Positions 2,414 to 59,194 of a stretch of 64,000 nucleotides of DNA are shown here, one piece after another. The stretch lies in NCBI GenBank assembly GCA_009729775.1, contig GCA_009729775.1_4081.1; one strand, given 5' to 3'. Below the pieces are notes generated by a model. The model was not told the origin of the DNA, did no database searches, and saw only the letters and a list, made by a program, of their open reading frames with translations. The DNA is from Escherichia coli. GTDB lineage: Bacteria > Pseudomonadota > Gammaproteobacteria > Enterobacterales > Enterobacteriaceae. Position numbers and translations under genes: made by a program. Every line of letters begins with the position of its first letter. The stretch's first letter is position 1.

Positions 2414-2496
2414 TCACTTCGTTCTCTCGTAACTCAAGAAGTCACTGCGTTTACTTCGTAAACTAGTTCCTTCTGAAAATGATAATGTACTTTAAA

Positions 2497-3068
2497 AACT
2501 TGACGGGATTTGTTGAGGACTATTACATCCCCCCGCAGGGGAATGAAGGTAATAAAAAAGAGACAATTAAGTCTCTCTTGACGATGATGGCATCGGATAT
2601 TATCGAATTGCGAATTTCTCAAATTTTGGACGGATCTTTCTTGTACCAAAATTTAGAGAGCGAAAGCGGGTTGCTCGGTTTCTCTCTATCGCAGTCATAT
2701 GCAACGGTCGCTGGTCTTTTCATCAACAGCACTCAGTACTAACTCTATTCGATCAAAGTAGTACTTGTTCTCAAATTTTGGACGCAACTTTCTTGTAAAA
2801 ATTGCGTCCGCTATCCTTGAACTCCCTTAGCAAATCTGGTAAGGTGCGAACCTTATACATCTATCTAGGAACTCTCTGTATGCTTATCGGAGTTCTTTAT
2901 ACAGCCGTGTCGCCGTGATTCGTGGTCTTACATCGTGTTTGTTTAAATGCCAGTACTCTAACAGGTTTCTTCTGCTGTTCGCTACAACGGTAAAGCTCAT
3001 CTATCCTTTACATTTTCAAGAGAAGTAGGTTCTCAGTGTCCATTTTTCAATGTCCGTTGTCATTTTCT
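2497..3068 (-). ncRNA. candidate large structured noncoding RNA, copy A (paralog of 58627..59162); identity unknown
   Basis: ~690 nt gap without credible ORF in an otherwise gene-dense genome; local GC ~50% vs ~33% background; blocks conserved with copy B (CCCCGCAGGGG, GAAAGCGGGTTGCTC.GTTTCTCTCTATCGC, GCAACGGTCG..GGTCTT, TTTGGACGCAACT, GGTAAGGTGCGA.CCTTATA, AGGAACTCTCT...GGAGTTCTTTATACAGCCG, TGCTGTTCG); conserved stems with variable loops; TGATATAAT extended -10 on minus strand at 3075-3083; strand and ends approximate. Confidence 0.45.
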
Positions 3069-24476: not shown

Positions 24477-24721
24477 TGTGCATCCTTCGGAACAGTATTA
24501 AGACGTTTGCGATTCACAATCTTCCTGCACATGAGGTTAAGATCTTGCCCATGACGCATAGTATGACATGCGTATAGTGTTCCTTGATGATTTAGTTTTG
24601 TTAAACCTTGACGGATGATTTCAGCATCCATCTCATCAACTTTAGGAGCACAACCACAGAGAATAATGGATACAAATATTGTTAATGTAATGAATATATT
24701 TTTCATGATATTTTTTCTCAT
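24473..24721 (-). CDS. small lipoprotein (82 aa)
   Basis: signal peptide with lipobox ILCGC. Confidence 0.5.
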   Translation of the reverse strand: MRKNIMKNIFITLTIFVSIILCGCAPKVDEMDAEIIRQGLTKLNHQGTLYACHTMRHGQDLNLMCRKIVNRKRLNTVPKDAQ

Positions 24722-25098
24722 TTAGTAAAACACGAATTATTACTGATAAGTTCATCAAGTACGTTTTGTACTTCGATAGAATTAATATCAACTTTGTAAT
24801 AATTATAGTTTTTAACTCTAAAATGTTCTTTTGATATATCAACTTTAAATTCAATAATATCAAGATTACCAATAAAATCAGACTTATCAGTTCTTAAATC
24901 CAAAATACCTAATTCCGGTTTTTGTGGTTTACATAAAATCAAACCAAATTTATTTTCTTCAAATGCCTGATTAAACATATCATAATAATCACTAATAACA
25001 AATCTAATATTATCAGTGCTTAACTTTCCTGATTTTCCTTTTTTATAAACAGAAACAATGTTTAGTTCAAAGGTTTTACCAAAGCGTGTGATTTTCAT
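24718..25098 (-). CDS. hypothetical protein (126 aa)
   Basis: ORF track. Confidence 0.55.
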   Translation of the reverse strand: MKITRFGKTFELNIVSVYKKGKSGKLSTDNIRFVISDYYDMFNQAFEENKFGLILCKPQKPELGILDLRTDKSDFIGNLDIIEFKVDISKEHFRVKNYNYYKVDINSIEVQNVLDELISNNSCFTK

Positions 25099-26066
25099 TT
25101 TGGGCTATAACCACTTTTAATTTTAGAAATTACTTTCTTCTCGAAGAACTTACGTGCTTCTTCAATAGTTTCGAATTCTTCACCATCTGTAGTACTAGTT
25201 TTACCAATAGAACCGTACTCAATAATTACTTCACACACTGGAGCATTCAATTCAATATTATAGAATTTGTTTGAAGAATCGTGAACATATTCCAAATGTA
25301 CATTATCAGGAATGTTCTGTACATAATCATAGTTCTTGAAGATAATATCAATCATATTTTCTTCGCCGCGATCAGGAAATATTTCAGTATTATTGAGTAC
25401 TAAACGCTGTGCAGCACGGAACATATCAAAATATTGTTCGCCTTTTTTCAGTTCTTTTGTATCAGAACAGAAATGACCATAATATTCTACATAATCATTC
25501 CAAGGATAAATTCCTTCATCAGCAGTTTCAGACACGTAAGTTTCATCTTGTGGAACTTTAAAACCACGAGTTTTTGGATGAGAAATTAAGCACAGTGAAA
25601 TATTATGACCGATATCTGAATCATCAGTAATACTACCACCAACCATATGAACAACATTTTTAATACTTTCAAAATCTACATCTTCAATTTCATGATACAT
25701 TAAATGTTCTTCAATATTACTTACTAGTAATGAATTACCATTTCCGGCATCGAATTCAAAAATGAAAAGTTCTACACAATCTTCTTCTTTCATTTCAATA
25801 GTATCACTGAGTTTAATATACTCATTTTTTAATTGTTCAATATTTTCATGAGAACCAAAACTATAACGTGAACTGATATAACTACTACCGTCCAACCATC
25901 CCATATCCCAAGGTTCTTCTGACATGTATTCTGAGCTATAGAAATCAGTCAAATCATCTCTCTGAGTACAAACCGTAAGAGAACGAACATTACTAAGACC
26001 TTGAACTTCAAGATTCAGCACTGTAGTATTGCCAATTTTTTGTTCAGAAATAATTTTAGTTTTCAT
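25095..26066 (-). CDS. protein with C-terminal WGR-like domain (323 aa)
   Basis: C-terminus NKFYNIELNAPVCEVIIEYGSIGKTSTTDGEEFETIEEARKFFEKKVISKIKSGY resembles the WGR motif pattern; N-terminal 260 aa unassigned. Confidence 0.55.
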   Translation of the reverse strand: MKTKIISEQKIGNTTVLNLEVQGLSNVRSLTVCTQRDDLTDFYSSEYMSEEPWDMGWLDGSSYISSRYSFGSHENIEQLKNEYIKLSDTIEMKEEDCVELFIFEFDAGNGNSLLVSNIEEHLMYHEIEDVDFESIKNVVHMVGGSITDDSDIGHNISLCLISHPKTRGFKVPQDETYVSETADEGIYPWNDYVEYYGHFCSDTKELKKGEQYFDMFRAAQRLVLNNTEIFPDRGEENMIDIIFKNYDYVQNIPDNVHLEYVHDSSNKFYNIELNAPVCEVIIEYGSIGKTSTTDGEEFETIEEARKFFEKKVISKIKSGYSPK

Positions 26067-26283
26067 TTAAAATACCTATTGAATTGATTTACGCCATTTG
26101 GCTAGTTTAACATTCATGTAAGTAAGGAACTCACGTTCCATCTCTTCTGAACTCATATTATCGCATTACAAAGCGAACATGTCAAGTGCACAAATGCAAA
26201 GATCTACAGCTTCACCTTTGACACCATCTTTACCTGCTTCTTTATATGATAACCCATCACGGATGTTCATATTTCATATCATC

Positions 26284-30460: not shown

Positions 30461-31012
30461 CTATAGATAACTAATTAGTAAGTTTTCTTTTTGAATCAGA
30501 TACTCCAATTCTTGTTTTGCTGTACCGATGAAGTTCTGTGTCATAAGATTATTATATCCCGCTTCTCGATTTTGTCCCTTAGAATAACGAGAAATATGAC
30601 ATAAATTTACACCAGCAACTTCAGCACTCGCATGTTTAGCATTAGTGTATCCATCTCTAATGTGTTTCAACTCGTCATAGCTTACTTCATAGCTAAAACT
30701 ATGACTGTTTGCACCTGGGTAAATTTCAAAAGTTTTGAGTGGTCGAAGATGGGAAACAAAAATATTGTAATCCATTTCTTCTTGAACTTCACGACGCAAC
30801 GCATCTTCTAGTGAGATATCAGTACTTTCAACTGTTCCACCACATCCTCCTAGAAGTCCATCCCAACGTAATTGTAGTAATACCAGATTTACTTCTGGTA
30901 TATCATTTAACTCATAGTTTTTGTAAGGGTTGCATTTTCTTGCAAAGAAATAGCAAAATACAAAATTTGCACGTGAGCCATATTCACCAAAGGGAACTTC
31001 TTTAACACTCAT
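30461..31012 (-). CDS. Nudix-family hydrolase (183 aa)
   Basis: Nudix-box-like GGCGGTVESTDISLEDALRREVQEEMD (REVQEE core; spacing slightly atypical); start overlaps Sir2-like stop (ATGA). Confidence 0.6.
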   Translation of the reverse strand: MSVKEVPFGEYGSRANFVFCYFFARKCNPYKNYELNDIPEVNLVLLQLRWDGLLGGCGGTVESTDISLEDALRREVQEEMDYNIFVSHLRPLKTFEIYPGANSHSFSYEVSYDELKHIRDGYTNAKHASAEVAGVNLCHISRYSKGQNREAGYNNLMTQNFIGTAKQELEYLIQKENLLISYL

Positions 31013-31767
31013 TTCATACGTTCCTTAATTATAGTCTCTAGATGTGGTATTGCTTTGGTTGCTGGCTTGATAACTTTTTCATTAAACAAAAAATCATTAT
31101 CATTTTTACGAATGTTAACATTAACACTATAACATGGTAATGCTGCTGCTAATCTCGACCATACCAGTACTGTATCGCTACTACCAATTACAATAACTGT
31201 ATCATTTTCATTAAGAGATTTCAACACATTATTTCGTTCTTCGTAAATTGGTAAGCGTATACCATCAACATAACGATGATATTCTCCAATCATTACTACA
31301 TTTGGTTTAGCAAAAACATCATGTTTTGGTATGTATGGTTCGTATCCGCAGTTAATAACATTATAATCATCAGAATTGATACTATAATTTTCAATAACTT
31401 CACACAAGTTTCCATGAAGTTTAAGCTCATGACCACCAATACGAGTATAAAGATCGTCCATGTTAGAAGTCATATGAAGGAAGCAATCACCATATTGATC
31501 TTCTAACGATTTTATAAAATAATGCATTGCATTTGGTTCGCATTGTCCCAATTTTACACGTAATGTATTATAGAAAGAATGAACAACATGATATTTTGTA
31601 GTTAAACTAGCAATGTTACATACATCATTAATTTTAAATGTATCCCACAAACCATCATCAAATCGAAAAGGTTCCATCCCACTTTCAACGGAAAGTCCTG
31701 CACCTGATATAATCAGTAATCGTTTTTTACCTTCATTGCTTATAAATTTTTCTGATATCATATTCAA
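31009..31767 (-). CDS. Sir2-family (sirtuin-like, NAD-binding) protein lacking the Zn-ribbon (252 aa)
   Basis: ISGAGLSVESGMEPFR (GAGIS..SGIP.FR), TSNMDDLY (TQNID.LH-like), LHGN, VIVIGSS; no Cys4 module. Confidence 0.8.
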   Translation of the reverse strand: MNMISEKFISNEGKKRLLIISGAGLSVESGMEPFRFDDGLWDTFKINDVCNIASLTTKYHVVHSFYNTLRVKLGQCEPNAMHYFIKSLEDQYGDCFLHMTSNMDDLYTRIGGHELKLHGNLCEVIENYSINSDDYNVINCGYEPYIPKHDVFAKPNVVMIGEYHRYVDGIRLPIYEERNNVLKSLNENDTVIVIGSSDTVLVWSRLAAALPCYSVNVNIRKNDNDFLFNEKVIKPATKAIPHLETIIKERMK

Positions 31768-46746: not shown

Positions 46747-46991
46747 TATAATAAACCTCTCACATAAAACATTGATGAAAATAGATAATCATTAGTACTT
46801 GTGTTTAGTTGTTTAGAAAAGTTATATTTTTTATCTTTATTTTCGTATAAAGACAATCTATAGAACATTTCTATATTTTCTAAGTATTCTTTTTGTAACA
46901 ACATCTGTGTTTTTACATTCATTATAATATACCTTAAAAGAAAAAGGGACCAACATATGATCCCTTTTGTATTAGAAATTTCCTTCTGCAA
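46746..46991 (-). CDS. hypothetical small protein (start uncertain; track start is TTG inside pseT 3' end)
   Basis: ORF track; probable true start at internal ATG (MNVKTQ...). Confidence 0.35.
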   Translation of the reverse strand: MQKEISNTKGIICWSLFLLRYIIMNVKTQMLLQKEYLENIEMFYRLSLYENKDKKYNFSKQLNTSTNDYLFSSMFYVRGLL

Positions 46992-47904
46992 CTTGCATTA
47001 CTTTCAAGCCAAGTAGCTTACGCCACATGAATACAACTTGATCGCGGTCATCATAAACCTTTTTAACATCGTAATGATCAACCACATTTTTCATGTACAG
47101 GTCGAATTTTACAACATCATCGGGACGTTTATCATCTATGTCTCGCATAAACAATGCATCGTAAGGAATACCCCAATTCTTAAGCCACTGTTCGGTATCA
47201 GCACGACACCCTTCAGTACGCCCACTCATGACGATAATCTTGCGTTTATGAAAAACTGCTTCAGCGATAATAGACAAAATAACTTCTTCATCTGGTGTAT
47301 CCTGAAGAACAGTACTTTCATCGTAAGGATTACGACCCCATTTATGAGCAAGAGTACCGTCAATATCAACGATAACAGCAGCTTCTCGTGAATTACCATA
47401 GTAACCAATGTGCATGGCCTTACTATAATAGTACGTATCTGCCATAGTGTCAATGATATTATCTTGTACTGAACGCTCACGCATGAGGTTACGTTTCTTA
47501 CAAAGTTTTACGAACTCTTTAATCTTAAAGAAAACATGAACATCTGCACCACGATCTTCATTCGGTACAAAATCTTCGTAGAAGTTCTTTTCTTTGTAGT
47601 CGTATTCATTATCTTTAGCCCAACGTTTCCATTCATCACGGAAATGTTGTTTAAGGTTCGTATCGGACACAATGATGTTCCAACCATTCTCTGCTGCTGA
47701 ATTTGCTGCACTGAACTGCATTTTAGTTACGTACTGCTCATTAGCGTCGTTGAATTTGTATGCATCATGTGACCCTGCCATTGATTCTCGAATGTCATCA
47801 CGGTTAATGTTGATAGTCTTCGATTTGGCATTTTTAATTTCTTGAACTGCCCATGTGGTTTTACCACAACCAGGCAACCCAACTGTTAGTGTAATAGTTG
47901 GCAT
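46972..47904 (-). CDS. pseT: polynucleotide 5'-kinase / 3'-phosphatase
   Basis: Walker A GLPGCGKTT; HAD phosphatase motif VIVDIDGTLA; overall resemblance to T4 PseT (from memory) including C-terminal QVAEGNF; AAGGAG RBS. Confidence 0.9.
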   Translation of the reverse strand: MPTITLTVGLPGCGKTTWAVQEIKNAKSKTININRDDIRESMAGSHDAYKFNDANEQYVTKMQFSAANSAAENGWNIIVSDTNLKQHFRDEWKRWAKDNEYDYKEKNFYEDFVPNEDRGADVHVFFKIKEFVKLCKKRNLMRERSVQDNIIDTMADTYYYSKAMHIGYYGNSREAAVIVDIDGTLAHKWGRNPYDESTVLQDTPDEEVILSIIAEAVFHKRKIIVMSGRTEGCRADTEQWLKNWGIPYDALFMRDIDDKRPDDVVKFDLYMKNVVDHYDVKKVYDDRDQVVFMWRKLLGLKVMQVAEGNF

Positions 47905-47916
47905 TATTACTCCTTG

Positions 47917-48231
47917 TTACTCAATGAATTCTACATCTTCGAGTTTGTGCCATCCTCTTGAAAGGTTTCTTGTTCCGTTATTGTATTCAGTGTATACAAA
48001 GCATTCACCATTTACTAAATTACCAATAGCAGTACGCGATACTTTAACATCAAGAATTATAGTACTGAACCATTCTCTGATTGTATGATCCCAGCATTTA
48101 ACTTTACATCCAATCAATGTTTTCTTAAAATCGAAAACGTAATCTTCGACCATTGATTCGACAGATTCTATTAGTTCCTTTTCAATGTACTTTAACTTTT
48201 CGATCCTCTCAAATGCAAGTTCTTTATTCAT
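47917..48231 (-). CDS. small protein, paralog family (104 aa)
   Basis: KKTLIGCKVKCW core. Confidence 0.5.
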   Translation of the reverse strand: MNKELAFERIEKLKYIEKELIESVESMVEDYVFDFKKTLIGCKVKCWDHTIREWFSTIILDVKVSRTAIGNLVNGECFVYTEYNNGTRNLSRGWHKLEDVEFIE

Positions 48232-48237
48232 ATGTCC

Positions 48238-48492
48238 TCAATTATCTAGAACATCCACTATCAAACAAGCTTCAATAACGAAACAATCATCTAATTCAAA
48301 GAGTAATTGATAGTCATCAGAAAACTTCACTTTAGTAATGTAAGCACTTTCAATTCCACCACTATGATAAGAACTATATAAAATACATTTACCTGTATAT
48401 TCCTTACGGATACGACTAAATTCTTCATATAAATGAGTAATAAACGTATCCGCAGTTTTGTTGTAGTATTTTAGGTCACTTACTGTGCTCAT
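48238..48492 (-). CDS. small protein, paralog family (84 aa)
   Basis: RKEYTGKCILYS core. Confidence 0.5.
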   Translation of the reverse strand: MSTVSDLKYYNKTADTFITHLYEEFSRIRKEYTGKCILYSSYHSGGIESAYITKVKFSDDYQLLFELDDCFVIEACLIVDVLDN

Positions 48493-48706
48493 TAACTTTT
48501 CCTACTCCAAATCGTTTGGAGATTTTCACAAGTACAGATTCATCACAACGAATACTAGCTGTATCATTGGATGAACTGTACTTTAATGGGGTCCACTGTA
48601 ATTGAGATTCTTCTAGGAACTTGATACATCTGAAGTAATCTTTCAGAGAAAGAAATTTAACTACTGACATATCCTGAACAATACTATGCTGAACTTCAAC
48701 TTTCAT
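48476..48706 (-). CDS. hypothetical protein (76 aa)
   Basis: ORF track. Confidence 0.45.
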   Translation of the reverse strand: MKVEVQHSIVQDMSVVKFLSLKDYFRCIKFLEESQLQWTPLKYSSSNDTASIRCDESVLVKISKRFGVGKVNEHSK

Positions 48707-48715
48707 ATGAACTCC

Positions 48716-48973
48716 TTATAGTGGATCAAATTTATTTTCACGTTTCGATGTATAGCGAGTTACATCATGTATTCTCGGCTTAACACCTTTTGGTTTCCTT
48801 TTCTTCTTGTATTCAGTACTACTACATCCGAAGGTATTCTCGATTCGTTTCTTACTTATCTTCACACCTTTCATTGAGCGTTTGTGCTGTAATTCATCGA
48901 TTTCTTCTTGTATTTTCCTGAACTCAGTCGGAGAAAGGGAACCGTCATTTTTATACTTAGGTTTAGCCATCAC
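48716..48973 (-). CDS. small basic protein (85 aa)
   Basis: K/R-rich. Confidence 0.5.
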   Translation of the reverse strand: MMAKPKYKNDGSLSPTEFRKIQEEIDELQHKRSMKGVKISKKRIENTFGCSSTEYKKKRKPKGVKPRIHDVTRYTSKRENKFDPL

Positions 48974-49000
48974 TTCTCCTTGTGCTTAGGCTAGATAGTA

Positions 49001-50143
49001 CTAAAAATCCTTTAGTACAATTTTCATGTATTTTATAAGAGTCTCTTTGTAATCAACTTTCTTATTGTTATACATTGCAAAGGCCAAGCCCTGACGATTC
49101 AGTTCATTAGTTAAACACTCCTGAACCTTCATTGCGAATTCCTTTCGCTCCAAGTGCTTGTGTTCCTTGACGAAGCTTTCTACTTCATCTTGTAATGCAT
49201 TATAGCACGAAAATACCAATTGTTCCATTCTTAATATCTTTTGCATAGCATATTCATCAGTACTGAACAATTGTTTTAAATCATCACTAGAACCATTTAA
49301 TACTGCTTCATATAAATGAGAATCAATAATAATACTATCTTTTGTAAGATGTAATGAACTGTACCAGTCAGTCTTTATTTTACACATTGTCCCATTATTT
49401 AGGATGCACACAAAACCCTCAATATCAAGCATTTTATGAACTTCCTCCACGCTTTCACGGAAGGTATTTCGTACCGGAAAAGTGTGATGAATATCTTTTC
49501 CAGTCATATTAGTACTGTACTGTGCAAGACATGGAAACTTATCACGTAGTGCTTTACCACATAGCAACTCACCACTCACACGATGACGAACGTTCAGTAC
49601 AAACAGTTGTTCTACCTGATATGGTAATACAATTCGGTACTCTGGGCTTGTATACTCCATATTAACTGTGTAACCTAAACGTTCCGCTTCGTCGATGTAC
49701 TGATACAAATTCTGGTTCTCGTTAATAAGTCGAGTACTGTTAATCGCATGGTCAGAGTACAATGCAGTATGTGATTTACAACGAATCTCACCATCATTAT
49801 CACGGTAAGTACTGATTACTGAACCATCCAACTTAGGCATCACTACTGCAATGTCATTACATGTGGTGTTGGCAGGGAACATTGTAGCAGGATTCTCATA
49901 AGCATTAAAGAACTTTTTCATAGTACGGGCAGCACAACGAATCATTTCACCTTCTTCATCAATTTCCCACATAGATCCACGGGTTTCTAATGCATTGGGT
50001 TGCATGAAATCAGTATATGATGCTAGTCGGTAACTGAATACACGATACGTGCCACCAGCAGGACTTTTATGATCTACATAAAAGAACGCATCGTTTGTAT
50101 TACATAAGTGCATTAAATCTTCATATATTTGCAAAAGGGTCAT
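49001..50143 (-). CDS. rnlA: RNA ligase 1 (T4 Rnl1-like)
   Basis: N-terminus and KxDG adenylation motif (MPKLDGS) closely parallel T4 RnlA as I recall it; 380 aa; AGAGGT RBS. Confidence 0.9.
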   Translation of the reverse strand: MTLLQIYEDLMHLCNTNDAFFYVDHKSPAGGTYRVFSYRLASYTDFMQPNALETRGSMWEIDEEGEMIRCAARTMKKFFNAYENPATMFPANTTCNDIAVVMPKLDGSVISTYRDNDGEIRCKSHTALYSDHAINSTRLINENQNLYQYIDEAERLGYTVNMEYTSPEYRIVLPYQVEQLFVLNVRHRVSGELLCGKALRDKFPCLAQYSTNMTGKDIHHTFPVRNTFRESVEEVHKMLDIEGFVCILNNGTMCKIKTDWYSSLHLTKDSIIIDSHLYEAVLNGSSDDLKQLFSTDEYAMQKILRMEQLVFSCYNALQDEVESFVKEHKHLERKEFAMKVQECLTNELNRQGLAFAMYNNKKVDYKETLIKYMKIVLKDF

Positions 50144-55732: not shown

Positions 55733-56419
55733 TTATTCATCGTCGTCATCGTCATCTAGATCGATATAGATACTATCATCACCATCATCAAAGTACTCCA
55801 CAATAACTCCTGGAATATTAAGGGCAGTAAACATTGCATCATATTTCTCATCAGATGGAATCAAAACAAATTCATCAATGTTTTGAACTTCTGGCATTTT
55901 ATCTTCGGGGATACCCATATCAACAAGTGACTGAATAATCTTTTCTTTGAATTCTAAAAACTTCTCTTCAGATTCAAAATCCATAATAAGCTGTGCAACA
56001 TATCCTTCATCGTTACCGAATGAAATTGACATTTGTGCATCAGTGCCGACATAGCACCAAACACGTTTACCTGTGTGCTGCTCAATAAAGTTTTGAATCT
56101 GTAACACAATGTCATGGCGAGAACTGTTAGCAATGTTGTTAAGATTTTCTACACCAGCATTAATTCCAGTACTGTCATTTGTTTCTTCAAATTCACCATA
56201 ATCACCCAATACATACTGTACACCTTCATGATGTAATGCATATGCATAGTCAAGGTCAGCGAGTGAATCGCACTTTCCACGGATCGGACGTAGGGAAAGA
56301 CCTAAGCGAAGATAACGGAAGTATGTATTAGTATTTGTATTTGTCAACGTAATGCTCCTTAACAATATAAAAGTAGTTGCTGTTATTGTCAAAAAAGATA
56401 ACCATCCCTTTATAGACAT
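55733..56419 (-). CDS. hypothetical protein with poly-Asp C-terminal tail (start uncertain)
   Basis: ORF track; C-terminus IDLDDDDDDE; N-terminal ~30 codons overlap 56328..56627. Confidence 0.5.
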   Translation of the reverse strand: MSIKGWLSFLTITATTFILLRSITLTNTNTNTYFRYLRLGLSLRPIRGKCDSLADLDYAYALHHEGVQYVLGDYGEFEETNDSTGINAGVENLNNIANSSRHDIVLQIQNFIEQHTGKRVWCYVGTDAQMSISFGNDEGYVAQLIMDFESEEKFLEFKEKIIQSLVDMGIPEDKMPEVQNIDEFVLIPSDEKYDAMFTALNIPGVIVEYFDDGDDSIYIDLDDDDDDE

Positions 56420-56627
56420 TTACACCAATTTTGATTTCACATATGTTATTTGATTTACTCGCTTCAGTCAATAACATTTTGTGCTCTTTACTGAAAGTGT
56501 GGAACAGTGGTTTGACATGCCACATTTCGATACCATCCAGTACTGAAAATTTTTCACTAAATTTAATCATTGATTCTTGTAAAAAATATCCTGTAAGATT
56601 TATTTCATCACACATGCAAGTTTCCAA
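56328..56627 (-). CDS. hypothetical protein (99 aa)
   Basis: ORF track. Confidence 0.45.
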   Translation of the reverse strand: METCMCDEINLTGYFLQESMIKFSEKFSVLDGIEMWHVKPLFHTFSKEHKMLLTEASKSNNICEIKIGVNVYKGMVIFFDNNSNYFYIVKEHYVDKYKY

Positions 56628-56901
56628 GAAAATTAATCACATCTGCATGTGATAATGTATCATTACCTTCTAGTACATTAATGATAAACGGCACTTGGCG
56701 ATATAGTTCAGCCAAGAATTGTACCTCATCAGATGTGTAAGAATATCCCATAGGAACAACCTGTGCAGTCCAGTTTCCTAGAGTTTTGTTAGCAATAATT
56801 GCAACTACAGTATTACCTTTGTATTCAACATGGATGGAACGAAATCCTGATTGCTCATTTTGATCCCAAAGTACTGGATTGGTTTTGAACAGTACTGACA
56901 T
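56608..56901 (-). CDS. hypothetical protein (97 aa)
   Basis: ORF track. Confidence 0.5.
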   Translation of the reverse strand: MSVLFKTNPVLWDQNEQSGFRSIHVEYKGNTVVAIIANKTLGNWTAQVVPMGYSYTSDEVQFLAELYRQVPFIINVLEGNDTLSHADVINFLGNLHV

Positions 56902-56903
56902 AA

Positions 56904-57437
56904 TTATTTCCTCATGTATTTTATAACGTCTTCAAATAATTGTATTTTTAAGTCCTCGTCATTTCCAGGTAAAAACTCACGAAAACTAGCAAAATCTTCA
57001 TTTTTTGCGAAGTTACGCATTTGTGTTGAGCTATATTGACTTACATTACGGTCAATACCTGCCTGAATTGCTTTTATACTACAAAAATTATACAACTTAC
57101 CATTGTACATGTCAAGAGTTTTTTGAAAAGAATCAATACGGTCAGAACCACAAATGAAAAGAACATCTAAGTACTTTCCATCCAGTTCTCTCATTATATC
57201 AAATAGATTGTCTTCTGTGTAGATGTTCTCTTGCACTGAAGGATAGAATCCCTCTGTATAATACATTTTTAGTTCAGGTGGGAGTGGGTTTTTTATATTG
57301 TCAGTACTGGTGCTTAGATATATTTTTAAATCAGCATTGTACTGTTCTTGTAATGTTTTGGCCTTTTCAAAAACTAAACCATGTCCACGATGTACAGGAT
57401 TAATACGACCAAACGTTAATACACATGTTTCTTTCAT
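56904..57437 (-). CDS. HxGH-motif nucleotidyltransferase, NMN/NaMN adenylyltransferase-like (177 aa)
   Basis: FGRINPVHRGH (cytidylyltransferase-fold H-x-G-H) and downstream SSTQMR (cf. ISSTxIR); substrate not determinable. Confidence 0.55.
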   Translation of the reverse strand: MKETCVLTFGRINPVHRGHGLVFEKAKTLQEQYNADLKIYLSTSTDNIKNPLPPELKMYYTEGFYPSVQENIYTEDNLFDIMRELDGKYLDVLFICGSDRIDSFQKTLDMYNGKLYNFCSIKAIQAGIDRNVSQYSSTQMRNFAKNEDFASFREFLPGNDEDLKIQLFEDVIKYMRK

Positions 57438-57955
57438 AAATTCTTCATCACCAACCCAAGAGATTTAAGATAATTGATTTTAGCAGTGGTTAAGTACTTA
57501 TCCAGTACTATCAGACACGAAGGAAATGGTGCTGAATCTGTTTTCTTATCGGGTTCTTCTGGTATACCAAATCGTAATCTTCCCTTAATAAAACAAATAC
57601 AATCACATATTTTAGCAGCATAATCCTGAAAAGCAATTGTGTCGGTTCTTGAGGGTACAAGAATAACTACAGTTGCCCCGTTATTATATGCATCTACTGC
57701 TTTAGATAACCAAGTTTTCAAGTCACTGTATGGTGGATTCAACCAAACTATATTATTTCCCCAATCCTGTGATAGTGAATCATCTTCTGGAGTGAAAAAA
57801 TTATCACACAATGCAGTCTCATCTACACAAGCAGCATCAAGTGTAAATCCCCATAACTCATCCAAATCTTCAAAGAAATCTTTGGGAGTTGTCCAGTTAT
57901 CTTTTCCAGTACTGAAATGTACTGAATGTTTTTTCGAAGCATCCTTCTTCGACAT
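57434..57955 (-). CDS. phage-type DNA N6-adenine methyltransferase (173 aa)
   Basis: NPPY catalytic motif (WLNPPYSD); size typical of small phage Dam-like MTases. Confidence 0.6.
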   Translation of the reverse strand: MSKKDASKKHSVHFSTGKDNWTTPKDFFEDLDELWGFTLDAACVDETALCDNFFTPEDDSLSQDWGNNIVWLNPPYSDLKTWLSKAVDAYNNGATVVILVPSRTDTIAFQDYAAKICDCICFIKGRLRFGIPEEPDKKTDSAPFPSCLIVLDKYLTTAKINYLKSLGLVMKNL

Positions 57956-57971
57956 TATATAATTCCTTTTG

Positions 57972-58592
57972 TTAGAGACAGTTGTGTACTATCTTATCAA
58001 AAGTACTACTGTCAATGTTATATTCATATAAAAATTTAAAATGTGAACCGTAACGCATCATCAGATTAAACTCTTCTTCAGTATTGAACTTGTAATCATG
58101 AATAGTCTCAGGGGTACATTTTAAACCCAAGAACTCTATAATTTCAGATGTTACATCATATCCTGAATTGAAGTATTTAACCCAAACACATTTTCCTTGT
58201 GGGTTGTATTTTCTATATTCTCCTTCTAGTTCTCCTTTAATAATATGAGCCTTAACACTTATTGAATTATTACTATATCTTTCTTCAAAATAATTACCAT
58301 ACTGGGCTTTTGATATTGTTGGTTTTTGAGTAGGAAGTAATTTAACTGAAGTCACTTCAATTCCATTTTGTAATTCCTTTATATAAGAAATGCATCCTTT
58401 TTCTTTAATAACCACATATCCAGTAAAGATATCTTCGTCTTGTGATTGATTAATGCAATCATCAAAATTCAAAGTTTTATAAGTAACAGTTTTTTCTTTT
58501 CTAATAAATGCCATCATTATTCCTATGGAAACATCAATGAATATACGTGACGTTGATTGCATCAACATCAGTAGAATTATCATGCTACGCAT
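57972..58592 (-). CDS. hypothetical protein (206 aa; start probably internal)
   Basis: ORF track. Confidence 0.5.
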   Translation of the reverse strand: MRSMIILLMLMQSTSRIFIDVSIGIMMAFIRKEKTVTYKTLNFDDCINQSQDEDIFTGYVVIKEKGCISYIKELQNGIEVTSVKLLPTQKPTISKAQYGNYFEERYSNNSISVKAHIIKGELEGEYRKYNPQGKCVWVKYFNSGYDVTSEIIEFLGLKCTPETIHDYKFNTEEEFNLMMRYGSHFKFLYEYNIDSSTFDKIVHNCL

Positions 58593-58626
58593 GTCTAATT
58601 CTACAAGTACTATTTTCTTTTAATTA

Positions 58627-59162
58627 ATATTGACGGGGTTTGCTTGAGCATATTTCATCCCCCCGCAGGGGAAAGAACAAAAAAATTTGACGCTGGTGGC
58701 CTTCACATAGTTCATATCACGAATTCTCTTACGAGACGAAAGCGGGTTGCTCTGTTTCTCTCTATCGCGGTTCTTGTAGCAACGGTCGTCGGTCTTAAAC
58801 ATCCCGACACATAATACAAATACCATATGACCAGTACTTGTATTTGATTTCACAAAATTTGGACGCAACTATATTGTATAATTCCGACCGCATATTTCTT
58901 ATGAAATCTCCCTTAGATAATTGGTAAGGTGCGATCCTTATATGTCTATCGAGGAACTCTCTTTATCCTATTGGAGTTCTTTATACAGCCGCATTGCCGT
59001 GAGTGGTTCAAACTATGCCATCATCTAACGGGTTTCATCTGCTGTTCGTACTGAAAGGACTACTCATCTACCCTCTACATTTTCGAGTGGATTAGGCTTT
59101 TAATCATTTCCTTATGGGAACCTTTCAGGATTAAAAAAGGTGACTAACATATTATGTTGTCA
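58627..59162 (-). ncRNA. candidate large structured noncoding RNA, copy B (paralog of 2497..3068); identity unknown
   Basis: ~600 nt without credible ORF; GC-enriched; same conserved blocks and stems as copy A; TGATATAAT on minus strand at 59169-59177 immediately upstream; strand and ends approximate. Confidence 0.45.
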
Positions 59163-59166
59163 CCTT
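59131..59166 (-). terminator. strong hairpin (AAGGTGACTAACAT/ATGTTGTCACCTT) plus U6; overlaps the transcription start of the promoter at 59169-59177
   Basis: ~13-bp stem with A6 on plus 59133-59138; downstream of stop of 59195..60082. Confidence 0.5.
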
Positions 59167-59168
59167 AT

Positions 59169-59177
59169 ATTATATCA
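59169..59177 (-). promoter_or_regulatory. extended -10 promoter element TGATATAAT reading into ncRNA copy B
   Basis: plus attatatca 59169-59177. Confidence 0.4.
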
Positions 59178-59194
59178 TTAACTTATCATTTGTC

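Follow-up and report, generated by a model that had tools for sequence, protein, structure and literature searches.

We have analyzed a stretch of 64,000 nucleotides from an Escherichia coli assembly (GCA_009729775.1), called here the window, and in it a pair of overlapping phage genes that code for a methyltransferase and for a small nucleotidyltransferase. The explanation that best fits the pair as a whole, and that we hold to be slightly better than even, is that an orphan Dam methylase stands beside a nucleotidyltransferase of a phage branch of the HIGH superfamily, leaning towards the NMNAT type, and that the two are neighbours by descent. The pair is not a module for the salvage of nicotinamide adenine dinucleotide (NAD), the role against NAD-depleting defences that an initial annotation of this DNA had suggested for it.

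The source of the window is clear. Positions 56000-59000 showed 99.9% identity by megablast to Escherichia phage 121Q (NC_025447; Asteriusvirus, 348.5 kb) and several close relatives, and the whole window corresponds, in reverse orientation, to 121Q 187938-250540 at 97-98% identity. There is a single replacement relative to 121Q, at 24658-26270, standing where the 121Q record has 225663-225884. It codes for a protein of 323 amino acids (aa; open reading frame, ORF, 25095-26066, minus strand) with a C-terminal WGR domain (PF05406, E=1e-10) and for a 126-aa ORF. Because of this window-specific replacement, the window belongs to a 121Q-like Asteriusvirus (a RaK2-like jumbo coliphage) that is a relative of 121Q and distinct from it.

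The two enzymes

Both ORFs described in the initial annotation are present on the minus strand, with the motifs FGRINPVHRGH and NPPY that it had quoted and with the 4-base ATGA overlap between them (Table 1). The order of the genes had been reversed there: the methyltransferase is the upstream one, and its TGA overlaps the ATG of the nucleotidyltransferase. Both are genuine genes and not chance ORFs, as indicated by the Pfam Dam match of the first (E=7e-32) and by the phrog_3041 match (E=2.5e-57) and 3412 relatives of the second.

Judged by its sequence, the upstream member of the pair codes for an orphan N6-adenine DNA methyltransferase of the Dam family (PF05869), dependent on S-adenosylmethionine, something routine for a phage. 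The protein (METHYLTRANSFERASE) matched Pfam PF05869 (Dam) with E=7.4e-32, over profile positions 7-149 of 169 and with 110.8 bits against a gathering cut-off of 28.1, which upholds the Dam-like N6-adenine assignment made previously. It also matched phrog_111 (E=7e-57), and NC_025447 labels gp417, its homologue in 121Q, as 'DNA methyltransferase'. A sequence search among solved structures found no relative. No restriction gene adjoins the methyltransferase in the 121Q annotation (NC_025447), and for this reason we consider it an orphan methylase. The Pfam Dam match, the small size, the NPPY motif and the lack of an adjacent restriction gene are all common to the gp417 homologue and the phage orphan Dam enzymes of PF05869 and TIGR01712, among which we count the Dam methyltransferases of T1 and HP1. 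PF05869 methylases commonly occur as lone genes.

The specificity of the enzyme is a different matter. We take M.EcoVT2Dam to be another member of PF05869. This orphan methylase of the Stx phage VT2-Sa has been tested and its target is GATC (PMC6602927). In contrast to enzymes of that type, the gp417 homologue stays under the cut-off of TIGR01712 ('phage N-6-adenine-methyltransferase'), a near miss of 91.5 bits against an equivalog value of 97.05, and an identical GATC specificity cannot be assumed. In 121Q the tetranucleotide GATC is two-fold under-represented, with 620 observed against 1204 expected (observed/expected 0.51), a figure compatible with GATC methylation and also with its absence. 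The methylase would modify the phage DNA and in this way block restriction that is sensitive to adenine methylation.

The product of the downstream gene is a catalytic core without further domains, belonging to a large, phage-specific branch of the HIGH (HxGH ... SxxxxR) superfamily, represented by cyanophage T4-GC190 and by PHROG 3041/395. The match to phrog_3041 covers residues 2-176, phrog_395 was matched too, and both PHROGs are named 'cytidyltransferase', the label that NC_025447 also gives to gp418, the 121Q homologue. In Pfam the protein had sub-threshold matches only (FAD_syn, 17.4 bits; PF01467 CTP_transf_like, 17.2 bits against a gathering score of 21), while several of its relatives exceed the gathering score of PF01467. 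A word-indexed search returned close relatives only; an exhaustive HMMER profile search returned the 3412 relatives mentioned above (E<=1e-3), and about two thirds of the best 150 of them are proteins of 250-1224 aa in which this domain is N-terminal. By tblastn the domain was found in 566 phage records, mostly Synechococcus and Prochlorococcus myoviruses. The records of these cyanomyoviruses call it 'cytitidyltransferase' or 'Cyanophage-encoded cytidylyltransferase T4-GC0190', and the remaining ones include RaK2-like jumbo phages, PA5oct, RsoM2USA and Melnitz.

The motifs of the family are well defined. In 39 stand-alone members H19, N50, R100, N112, S136 and R141 are invariant and G10, R11, G18, L52, K57, G97, D99, Y111, G127 and F152 nearly so, and the commonest residues among the best 150 of the 3412 relatives read FGRxNPPTxGH ... 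KKNPL ... K ... GSDR ... YNG ... SAG.RD ... GxSASKMR. The YSSTQMR of the window protein aligns with INSTEMRN in the NadM-Nudix protein of phage GAP32 and with ISSS/ISST in PPAT and NadD. Its AlphaFold2 model (mean predicted local distance difference test, pLDDT, of 89) has a HIGH-type fold. The protein thus carries (H/T)xGH, a C-terminal SxxxxR and the Rossmann-like alpha/beta fold common to NMNAT, PPAT, GCT, FADS and class I aminoacyl-tRNA synthetases, the features by which the HIGH superfamily is recognised. With the T4-GC190 / PHROG 3041 and 395 proteins (for example PSSM4_155 of P-SSM4 and GAP32_069) it shares 31-39% identity across the whole domain, together with GR..P..GH, NPL, K57, GSDR, YNG and S....R. 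It differs from most of them in having HRGH instead of TxGH. Besides, it consists of the 177-aa core only, whereas the cyanophage and marine members reach 280-1200 aa with DUF6321, DUF5824 and polynucleotide kinase (PNK)-like kinase domains. The marine members adjoin an RNA-ligase-like DUF6267 gene, while 121Q has neither DUF6267 nor such extra domains.

The names given to these genes vary. In GenBank KM507819 gp418 is called 'ribonucleotide reductase A', and the same mislabel is found in Salmonella phage 7t3 and in the Synechococcus phages S-H35 and S-MbCM100; a Pfam scan of the nucleotidyltransferase detected no ribonucleotide reductase domain behind it. Metagenome pipelines name members of the family variously NMNAT, NaMNAT or PPAT. 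A protein of the T4-GC190 family has been detected in virions (PMC9146016). Our literature searches on cytitidyltransferase, DUF5824 and DUF6267 gave no papers, and the Asteriusvirus genome papers do not discuss the methyltransferase or nucleotidyltransferase genes.

Substrate class and NAD salvage

By sequence and model comparison, the nearest known relatives of the nucleotidyltransferase are the NMNAT-type (NadM/NadD) enzymes and PPAT, without this amounting to membership in either. Foldseek with the model against the PDB retrieved PPAT and NadD/NMNAT with E around 1e-5 and TM scores around 0.6, PPAT being tied with NMNAT. A direct search of the sequence against PDB sequences gave nothing. 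The profile of the 39-sequence family matched the TmcAL-like MJ0951 (1e-4), PPAT (1.6e-4), NadD (2e-4) and NMNAT (4.5e-4), values that do not discriminate among them. In NCBIfam, the window protein had weak matches confined to its N-terminal (HxGH) part, with 19.9 bits against 112.45 for TIGR00482 and 14.9 against 150 for PRK00071. A census of the 39 members at E<=1 gave NadD in 28, NMNAT PRK01153 in 19, NadR-NMNAT in 14, FAD synthetase in 12, archaeal NMNAT in 10 and CoaD in 9, none of the 39 coming near a curated cut-off.

The clearest signal was obtained with hhalign, by which the family aligned to the NadM-Nudix of GAP32 (GAP32_112) over 141 columns with 86% probability (E=5e-6), a measure of relatedness and not of a same substrate. 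The alignment pairs GRFQMAHAGH, KNPFTFEER and INSTEMRN of the GAP32 protein with GRINPVHRGH, KNPLPPELK and YSSTQMRN of the window protein. Identity to the NadM-type NMN adenylyltransferases (Francisella NadM-Nudix 2QJT, M. jannaschii 1F9A, GAP32_112) and to NadD is 13-23%. Unlike them, the window protein is fused to neither a Nudix nor a kinase domain, the 121Q annotation offers it no Nampt partner, and it remains below every curated cut-off of the NMNAT/NadD hidden Markov models (HMMs). The GSDR and YNG motifs of the family presumably replace the pyridine-nucleotide-binding regions of the NadM/NadD structures. The NMNAT-like character proposed in the initial annotation is borne out in part: no curated threshold for NMNAT, CoaD or TagD was passed, and PPAT was tied with NMNAT by structure and by PDB profile.

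The label 'cytidyltransferase' would point elsewhere, to an enzyme like PPAT/CoaD, like FAD synthetase, or like the sugar/polyol-phosphate cytidylyltransferases (TagD/GCT), an assignment that we find quite unlikely. Aligned to a canonical TagD-like CTP_transf_like protein from a marine phage contig, the family gave an hhalign probability of 3% over 27 columns, in the HxGH region only. No glycerol-3-phosphate cytidylyltransferase model appeared among the 25 most-matched families of the NCBIfam census, and by inspection the GCT signatures RTEGISTT and RYVDEV are missing from the sequence. On these three grounds a TagD/GCT identity was excluded. As to CoaD, the models TIGR01510 and PRK00777 had no match at E<=1 for the window protein and weak ones for 9 of the 39 members. 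Identity to CoaD/PPAT is 12-18% and there is no CoA-pathway context, with a structural similarity equal to that with NMNAT; nor is it evident what need a phage would have for CoA or FAD synthesis.

We have also looked for the partners that NAD salvage would require, in the whole RefSeq annotation of 121Q, in eight large hypothetical proteins scanned with Pfam and in the window-specific insertion. Nampt/NadV, phosphoribosyl pyrophosphate (PRPP) synthetase, PnuC and a canonical NMNAT are not annotated anywhere in the 348.5 kb of 121Q, the eight large hypothetical proteins hide no Nampt or other salvage enzyme by Pfam, and the insertion at 24658-26270 holds the WGR-domain protein instead of a salvage partner. 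The absence of a Nampt-like partner from the window, already reported in the initial annotation, is thus confirmed by the syntenic 121Q annotation and by the content of the insertion. The genes of 121Q related to NAD or ADP-ribose are a Sir2-like protein, a Nudt16-like Nudix, a NudE-like Nudix, a macro-domain protein and a MutT-like protein. The first two, gp476 and gp477, are found in the window at about 30463-31763 (minus strand), where the gene of the Sir2-family protein (PF02146, E=5e-20) overlaps that of the Nudt16-like Nudix hydrolase.

The comparison with GAP32 is decisive in this respect. In this phage a 365-aa NadM-Nudix (GAP32_112) and a Nampt (GAP32_114) are coded just upstream of a Sir2-Nudix-PhoH block, whereas in the syntenic Sir2-Nudix block of 121Q both are missing and ClpP/HslV-like protease genes occupy their place. 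Separately, about 22 kb from its salvage genes, GAP32 also keeps a Dam-like gene, GAP32_068, followed by the T4-GC190 nucleotidyltransferase GAP32_069. Since GAP32 holds Nampt and NadM-Nudix and still keeps the pair, the small nucleotidyltransferase is not the salvage NMNAT of this group of phages.

The same data bear on the idea that the nucleotidyltransferase is a bona fide NMN/NaMN (nicotinamide or nicotinic acid mononucleotide) adenylyltransferase that rebuilds NAD against an NAD-depleting defence, in the manner of NARP2-type salvage. In favor of it are its nearest known relatives, which are of NadM/NadD type, the frequency of NAD-synthesis genes in jumbo phages (PMC7824862, PMC11662467) and the NAD-using Sir2-like protein with a Nudix partner coded in the window. 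Against this, the products of NADases are nicotinamide and ADP-ribose, from which NAD can be rebuilt only with Nampt (or Adps/Namat) and PRPP, none of them annotated in 121Q or in the window. The salvage pair of GAP32, Nampt with a canonical NadM-Nudix at another locus, is exactly what the syntenic block of 121Q is missing. T4-GC190 is moreover a core gene of cyanomyoviruses, with no NAD gene beside the P-SSM4 copy, and the cut-offs of all NMNAT HMMs were missed widely. We consider this function improbable. With NARP2-type reconstitution (Nampt plus NMNAT, here GAP32_114 plus GAP32_112) the window protein may share the adenylyltransferase chemistry, while the Nampt and NadM-Nudix genes are missing from 121Q and from the window. 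The initial annotation had named two outcomes that would tell against its NAD reading; of these, the lack of a salvage partner is what we found in 121Q, and an assignment to CoaD or TagD is not what the profile searches gave.

A circumstantial observation keeps a role in NAD metabolism alive. PA5oct carries a member of the T4-GC190 family, and this phage up-regulates the pncA-pncB1-nadE operon of its host (PMC7318152), a pathway that lacks only the NaMN adenylyltransferase step.

By analogy with other HIGH nucleotidyltransferases, the phosphate of an acceptor would attack the alpha-phosphate of a nucleoside triphosphate held by HxGH and SxxxxR, giving a nucleoside diphosphate-linked acceptor and pyrophosphate. 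The nucleotide is probably ATP, that is, AMP would be transferred. As the likeliest single acceptor we put forward, tentatively and at less than even weight, a mononucleotide of the NMN/NaMN type, and other acceptors, outside this type, the repair/ligase type and the PPAT/FADS/polyol-phosphate types, take what probability remains. With NMN/NaMN as acceptor the enzyme may top up the NadD/NadR adenylyltransferase step of the host's NAD recycling, and most of the weight that we give to this acceptor lies with such a role. We propose no Nampt-dependent salvage pathway formed by the phage, because 121Q has none.

Conservation of the pair and its neighbours

The two genes are adjacent also in GAP32 (at 39% and 42% identity), in Klebsiella phage RCIP0023 and in one GAP32-like metagenomic contig, with a 4-bp overlap in RCIP0023 and a 3-bp gap in GAP32. 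The four genes gp416-419 each have a counterpart in GAP32_067-070, at 35-42% identity and in unchanged order, and this four-gene block is limited to RaK2-like phages. Since the flanking gp416 and gp419 are as well conserved as the pair and keep their places around it, the adjacency is ordinary block synteny. No Dam neighbour of the nucleotidyltransferase was found outside the RaK2-like phages, in P-SSM4, PA5oct, Melnitz, RsoM2USA and five metagenomic contexts. The gene lies among virion genes in PA5oct, adjoins thymidylate synthase in L014 and, in marine T4-like phages, adjoins the RNA-ligase-like DUF6267 gene. The two genes would then be neighbours by descent that are expressed together, with nothing to indicate linked chemistries. 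The word 'coupled' used in the initial annotation holds for expression, through the ATGA overlap; beyond that it does not, given the four-gene synteny and an adjacency unseen outside the RaK2-like phages.

A link between the chemistries would be expected if both enzymes served a single DNA-modification pathway, the nucleotidyltransferase making an activated donor for the DNA that the methylase also marks, or nucleotidylating it. The tight ATGA overlap and the persistence of the adjacency among RaK2-like genera whose proteins share 39-42% identity would agree with it. The equal conservation of the flanking genes, the lack of a Dam neighbour in any lineage examined beyond the RaK2-like phages and the common occurrence of lone PF05869 methylases all speak against it, and we regard such a pathway as highly improbable.

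The marine neighbours suggest instead a function in nucleic-acid end repair. The family would nucleotidylate a polynucleotide-linked or repair-related phosphate, or would supply a dinucleotide cofactor to an RNA ligase, the 121Q copy being a stand-alone version. This seems to us unlikely, if the least so among the alternatives. An HMM search over six-frame ORFs found no DUF6267 homologue in 121Q. The gene linkage is circumstantial, with the PA5oct copy among virion genes and the L014 copy beside thymidylate synthase. To our knowledge, polynucleotide phosphates are not substrates of any HIGH nucleotidyltransferase, and we count this against the end-repair function as well.

Several results weigh against the explanation that we prefer, an orphan Dam methylase beside an NMNAT-leaning nucleotidyltransferase. 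The methylase falls below the equivalog cut-off of TIGR01712, so that GATC is no more than a candidate site for it. The nucleotidyltransferase passed no curated model (PF01467, 17.2 bits against 21; TIGR00482, 19.9 against 112). GAP32 keeps its T4-GC190 gene despite having a canonical NadM-Nudix and a Nampt, an indication that the gene does something else or something more. Outside the RaK2-like phages the conserved partners are DUF6267 (RNA-ligase-like) and, in the long members, fused PNK-like P-loop kinase domains, not NAD genes. Finally, we found no assayed member of the T4-GC190 family, and genome papers that mention the gene call its function unclear (PMC9146016, PMC6918029). It may be, and we think it rather unlikely, that the T4-GC190 enzymes, the 177-aa core included, form a functionally new branch with DUF6267 and PNK-like partners, not metabolic NMNAT, PPAT or TagD, and that RaK2-like phages have kept the core free-standing. 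Enzymes of such a branch might serve a phage ligase by producing or regenerating a dinucleotide cofactor, or might nucleotidylate a phosphate linked to nucleic acid, as in NAD-type 5' capping or end activation.

The positions of the features are collected in Table 1. The pair is co-oriented and lies within a long array of small phage genes, and its neighbours matched nothing but lineage-specific unknowns when scanned against PHROG and Pfam. The same array contains, at about 46970-50141 of the window (minus strand), part of an RNA-repair and translation toolkit that continues elsewhere in 121Q: a T4 Rnl1-like RNA ligase (gp438), a polynucleotide kinase (gp443), a Pth2-like peptidyl-tRNA hydrolase (gp458), a RlaP-like nucleotidyltransferase (gp506) and a tRNA nucleotidyltransferase (gp539). 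A full sigma-70 consensus (12/12; TTGACA, 17 nt, TATAAT) was found by pattern match only at 57087-57115, minus strand, within the nucleotidyltransferase ORF and about 190 nt ahead of its stop; it could be a promoter for the downstream genes.

Table 1. Coordinates of the gene pair, its motifs and the adjacent elements (window positions unless another record is named)
Feature	Position	Strand	Remarks
Dam-family N6-adenine DNA methyltransferase ORF (predicted), 173 aa, 121Q gp417 homologue	57434-57955	minus	upstream gene
HIGH-superfamily nucleotidyltransferase ORF, 177 aa, 121Q gp418 homologue	56904-57437	minus	stand-alone catalytic core of T4-GC190 / phrog_3041
ATGA overlap, methyltransferase TGA stop / nucleotidyltransferase ATG start	57434-57437	minus	plus-strand 'tcat'; possible translational coupling
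NPPY catalytic motif, methyltransferase residues 73-76	57728-57739	minus	AAT CCA CCA TAC on reverse complement
N-terminal nucleotide-binding motif FGRINPVHRGHG, nucleotidyltransferase residues 9-20	57378-57413	minus	HxGH = H16-H19
HRGH codons	57381-57392	minus	CAT CGT GGA CAT, reverse complement read
C-terminal YSSTQMR, nucleotidyltransferase residues 135-141	57015-57035	minus	SxxxxR / 'ISSTxxR' motif of HIGH nucleotidyltransferases
gp416 homologue, phrog_16210, upstream gene of syntenic block	57972-58592	minus	35% identity to GAP32_067, E=4e-31
gp419 homologue, phrog_14956, downstream gene of syntenic block	56608-56901	minus	39% identity to GAP32_070, E=3e-24
Sigma-70-like promoter match, TTGACA-16-GATAGT, 10/12	57988-58015	minus	about 30 nt upstream of methyltransferase ATG; pattern match only (consensus scan)
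RNA element copies in the window	58610-59135; 2480-3056	minus	
Further RNA element copies	121Q record 90330-90783, 326666-327148; GAP32 L003:2270-2790		

A probable structured RNA element, apparent restriction-site avoidance and the meaning of the pair

Just upstream of the four-gene block there is an ORF-free gap (58593-59194). It contains first a terminator-like hairpin at about 59130-59165 on the minus strand (GGTGAC...GTCACC and then seven T), directly after the gp415 homologue, and then an element of about 480 nt. In GAP32 a rho-independent terminator is annotated at the place equivalent to this hairpin. The element has about 70-75% DNA identity to GAP32, against 35-42% for the flanking proteins. 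Its occurrence is restricted to RaK2-like jumbo phages (275 places in 62 records), with 4-5 diverged copies per genome that share about 70% mutual identity; 121Q has four.

From these comparisons the element is likely a large structured RNA family that has not been described. RNAalifold on 11 copies predicted 64 pairs, the long-range closing helix included, with compensatory changes in 38 of them. A hand-drawn, pseudoknotted 3' domain had 96% of its cells paired where slid controls had 35-58%, and double changes occurred in 12 of its 18 pairs. The z-score of the single-sequence fold was unremarkable (-1.27). Rfam had no credible match for either window copy (one weak, sub-threshold match to a small RNA for the first copy), ARAGORN detected no tRNA or tmRNA in the element, and a covariance model of the 3' domain did not match lncRNA002 or lncRNA004, the long non-coding RNAs of PA5oct defined by RNA-seq.

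The composition of the phage DNA is peculiar as well. The tetranucleotide GCGC is absent from the window, where 27 +/- 6 were expected, and from the 348.5 kb of 121Q, where about 154 were. GATC (observed/expected 0.51, as given above), CCGG (0.56) and CATG (0.67) also fall short of expectation, and GTAC exceeds it (1.41). These counts suggest that restriction sites are strongly avoided, with selection acting on GCGC, a site of the HhaI/HinP1I type.

The gene pair itself is ordinary. Annotations of both genes exist for 121Q, PBECO4, GAP32 and dozens of relatives, and the nucleotidyltransferase family has been known from the time of the first cyanophage genomes. What gives it interest is that the T4-GC190 family is among the most widespread phage enzymes awaiting a functional assignment, a core gene of marine T4-like cyanophages with thousands of metagenomic relatives. 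Its function is narrowed by two results. One is that the family stands apart from the Nampt/NadM-Nudix salvage module; the other is its linkage, in marine phages, to an RNA-ligase-like gene. The small version carried by this E. coli phage would be a convenient protein for the biochemistry of the family.

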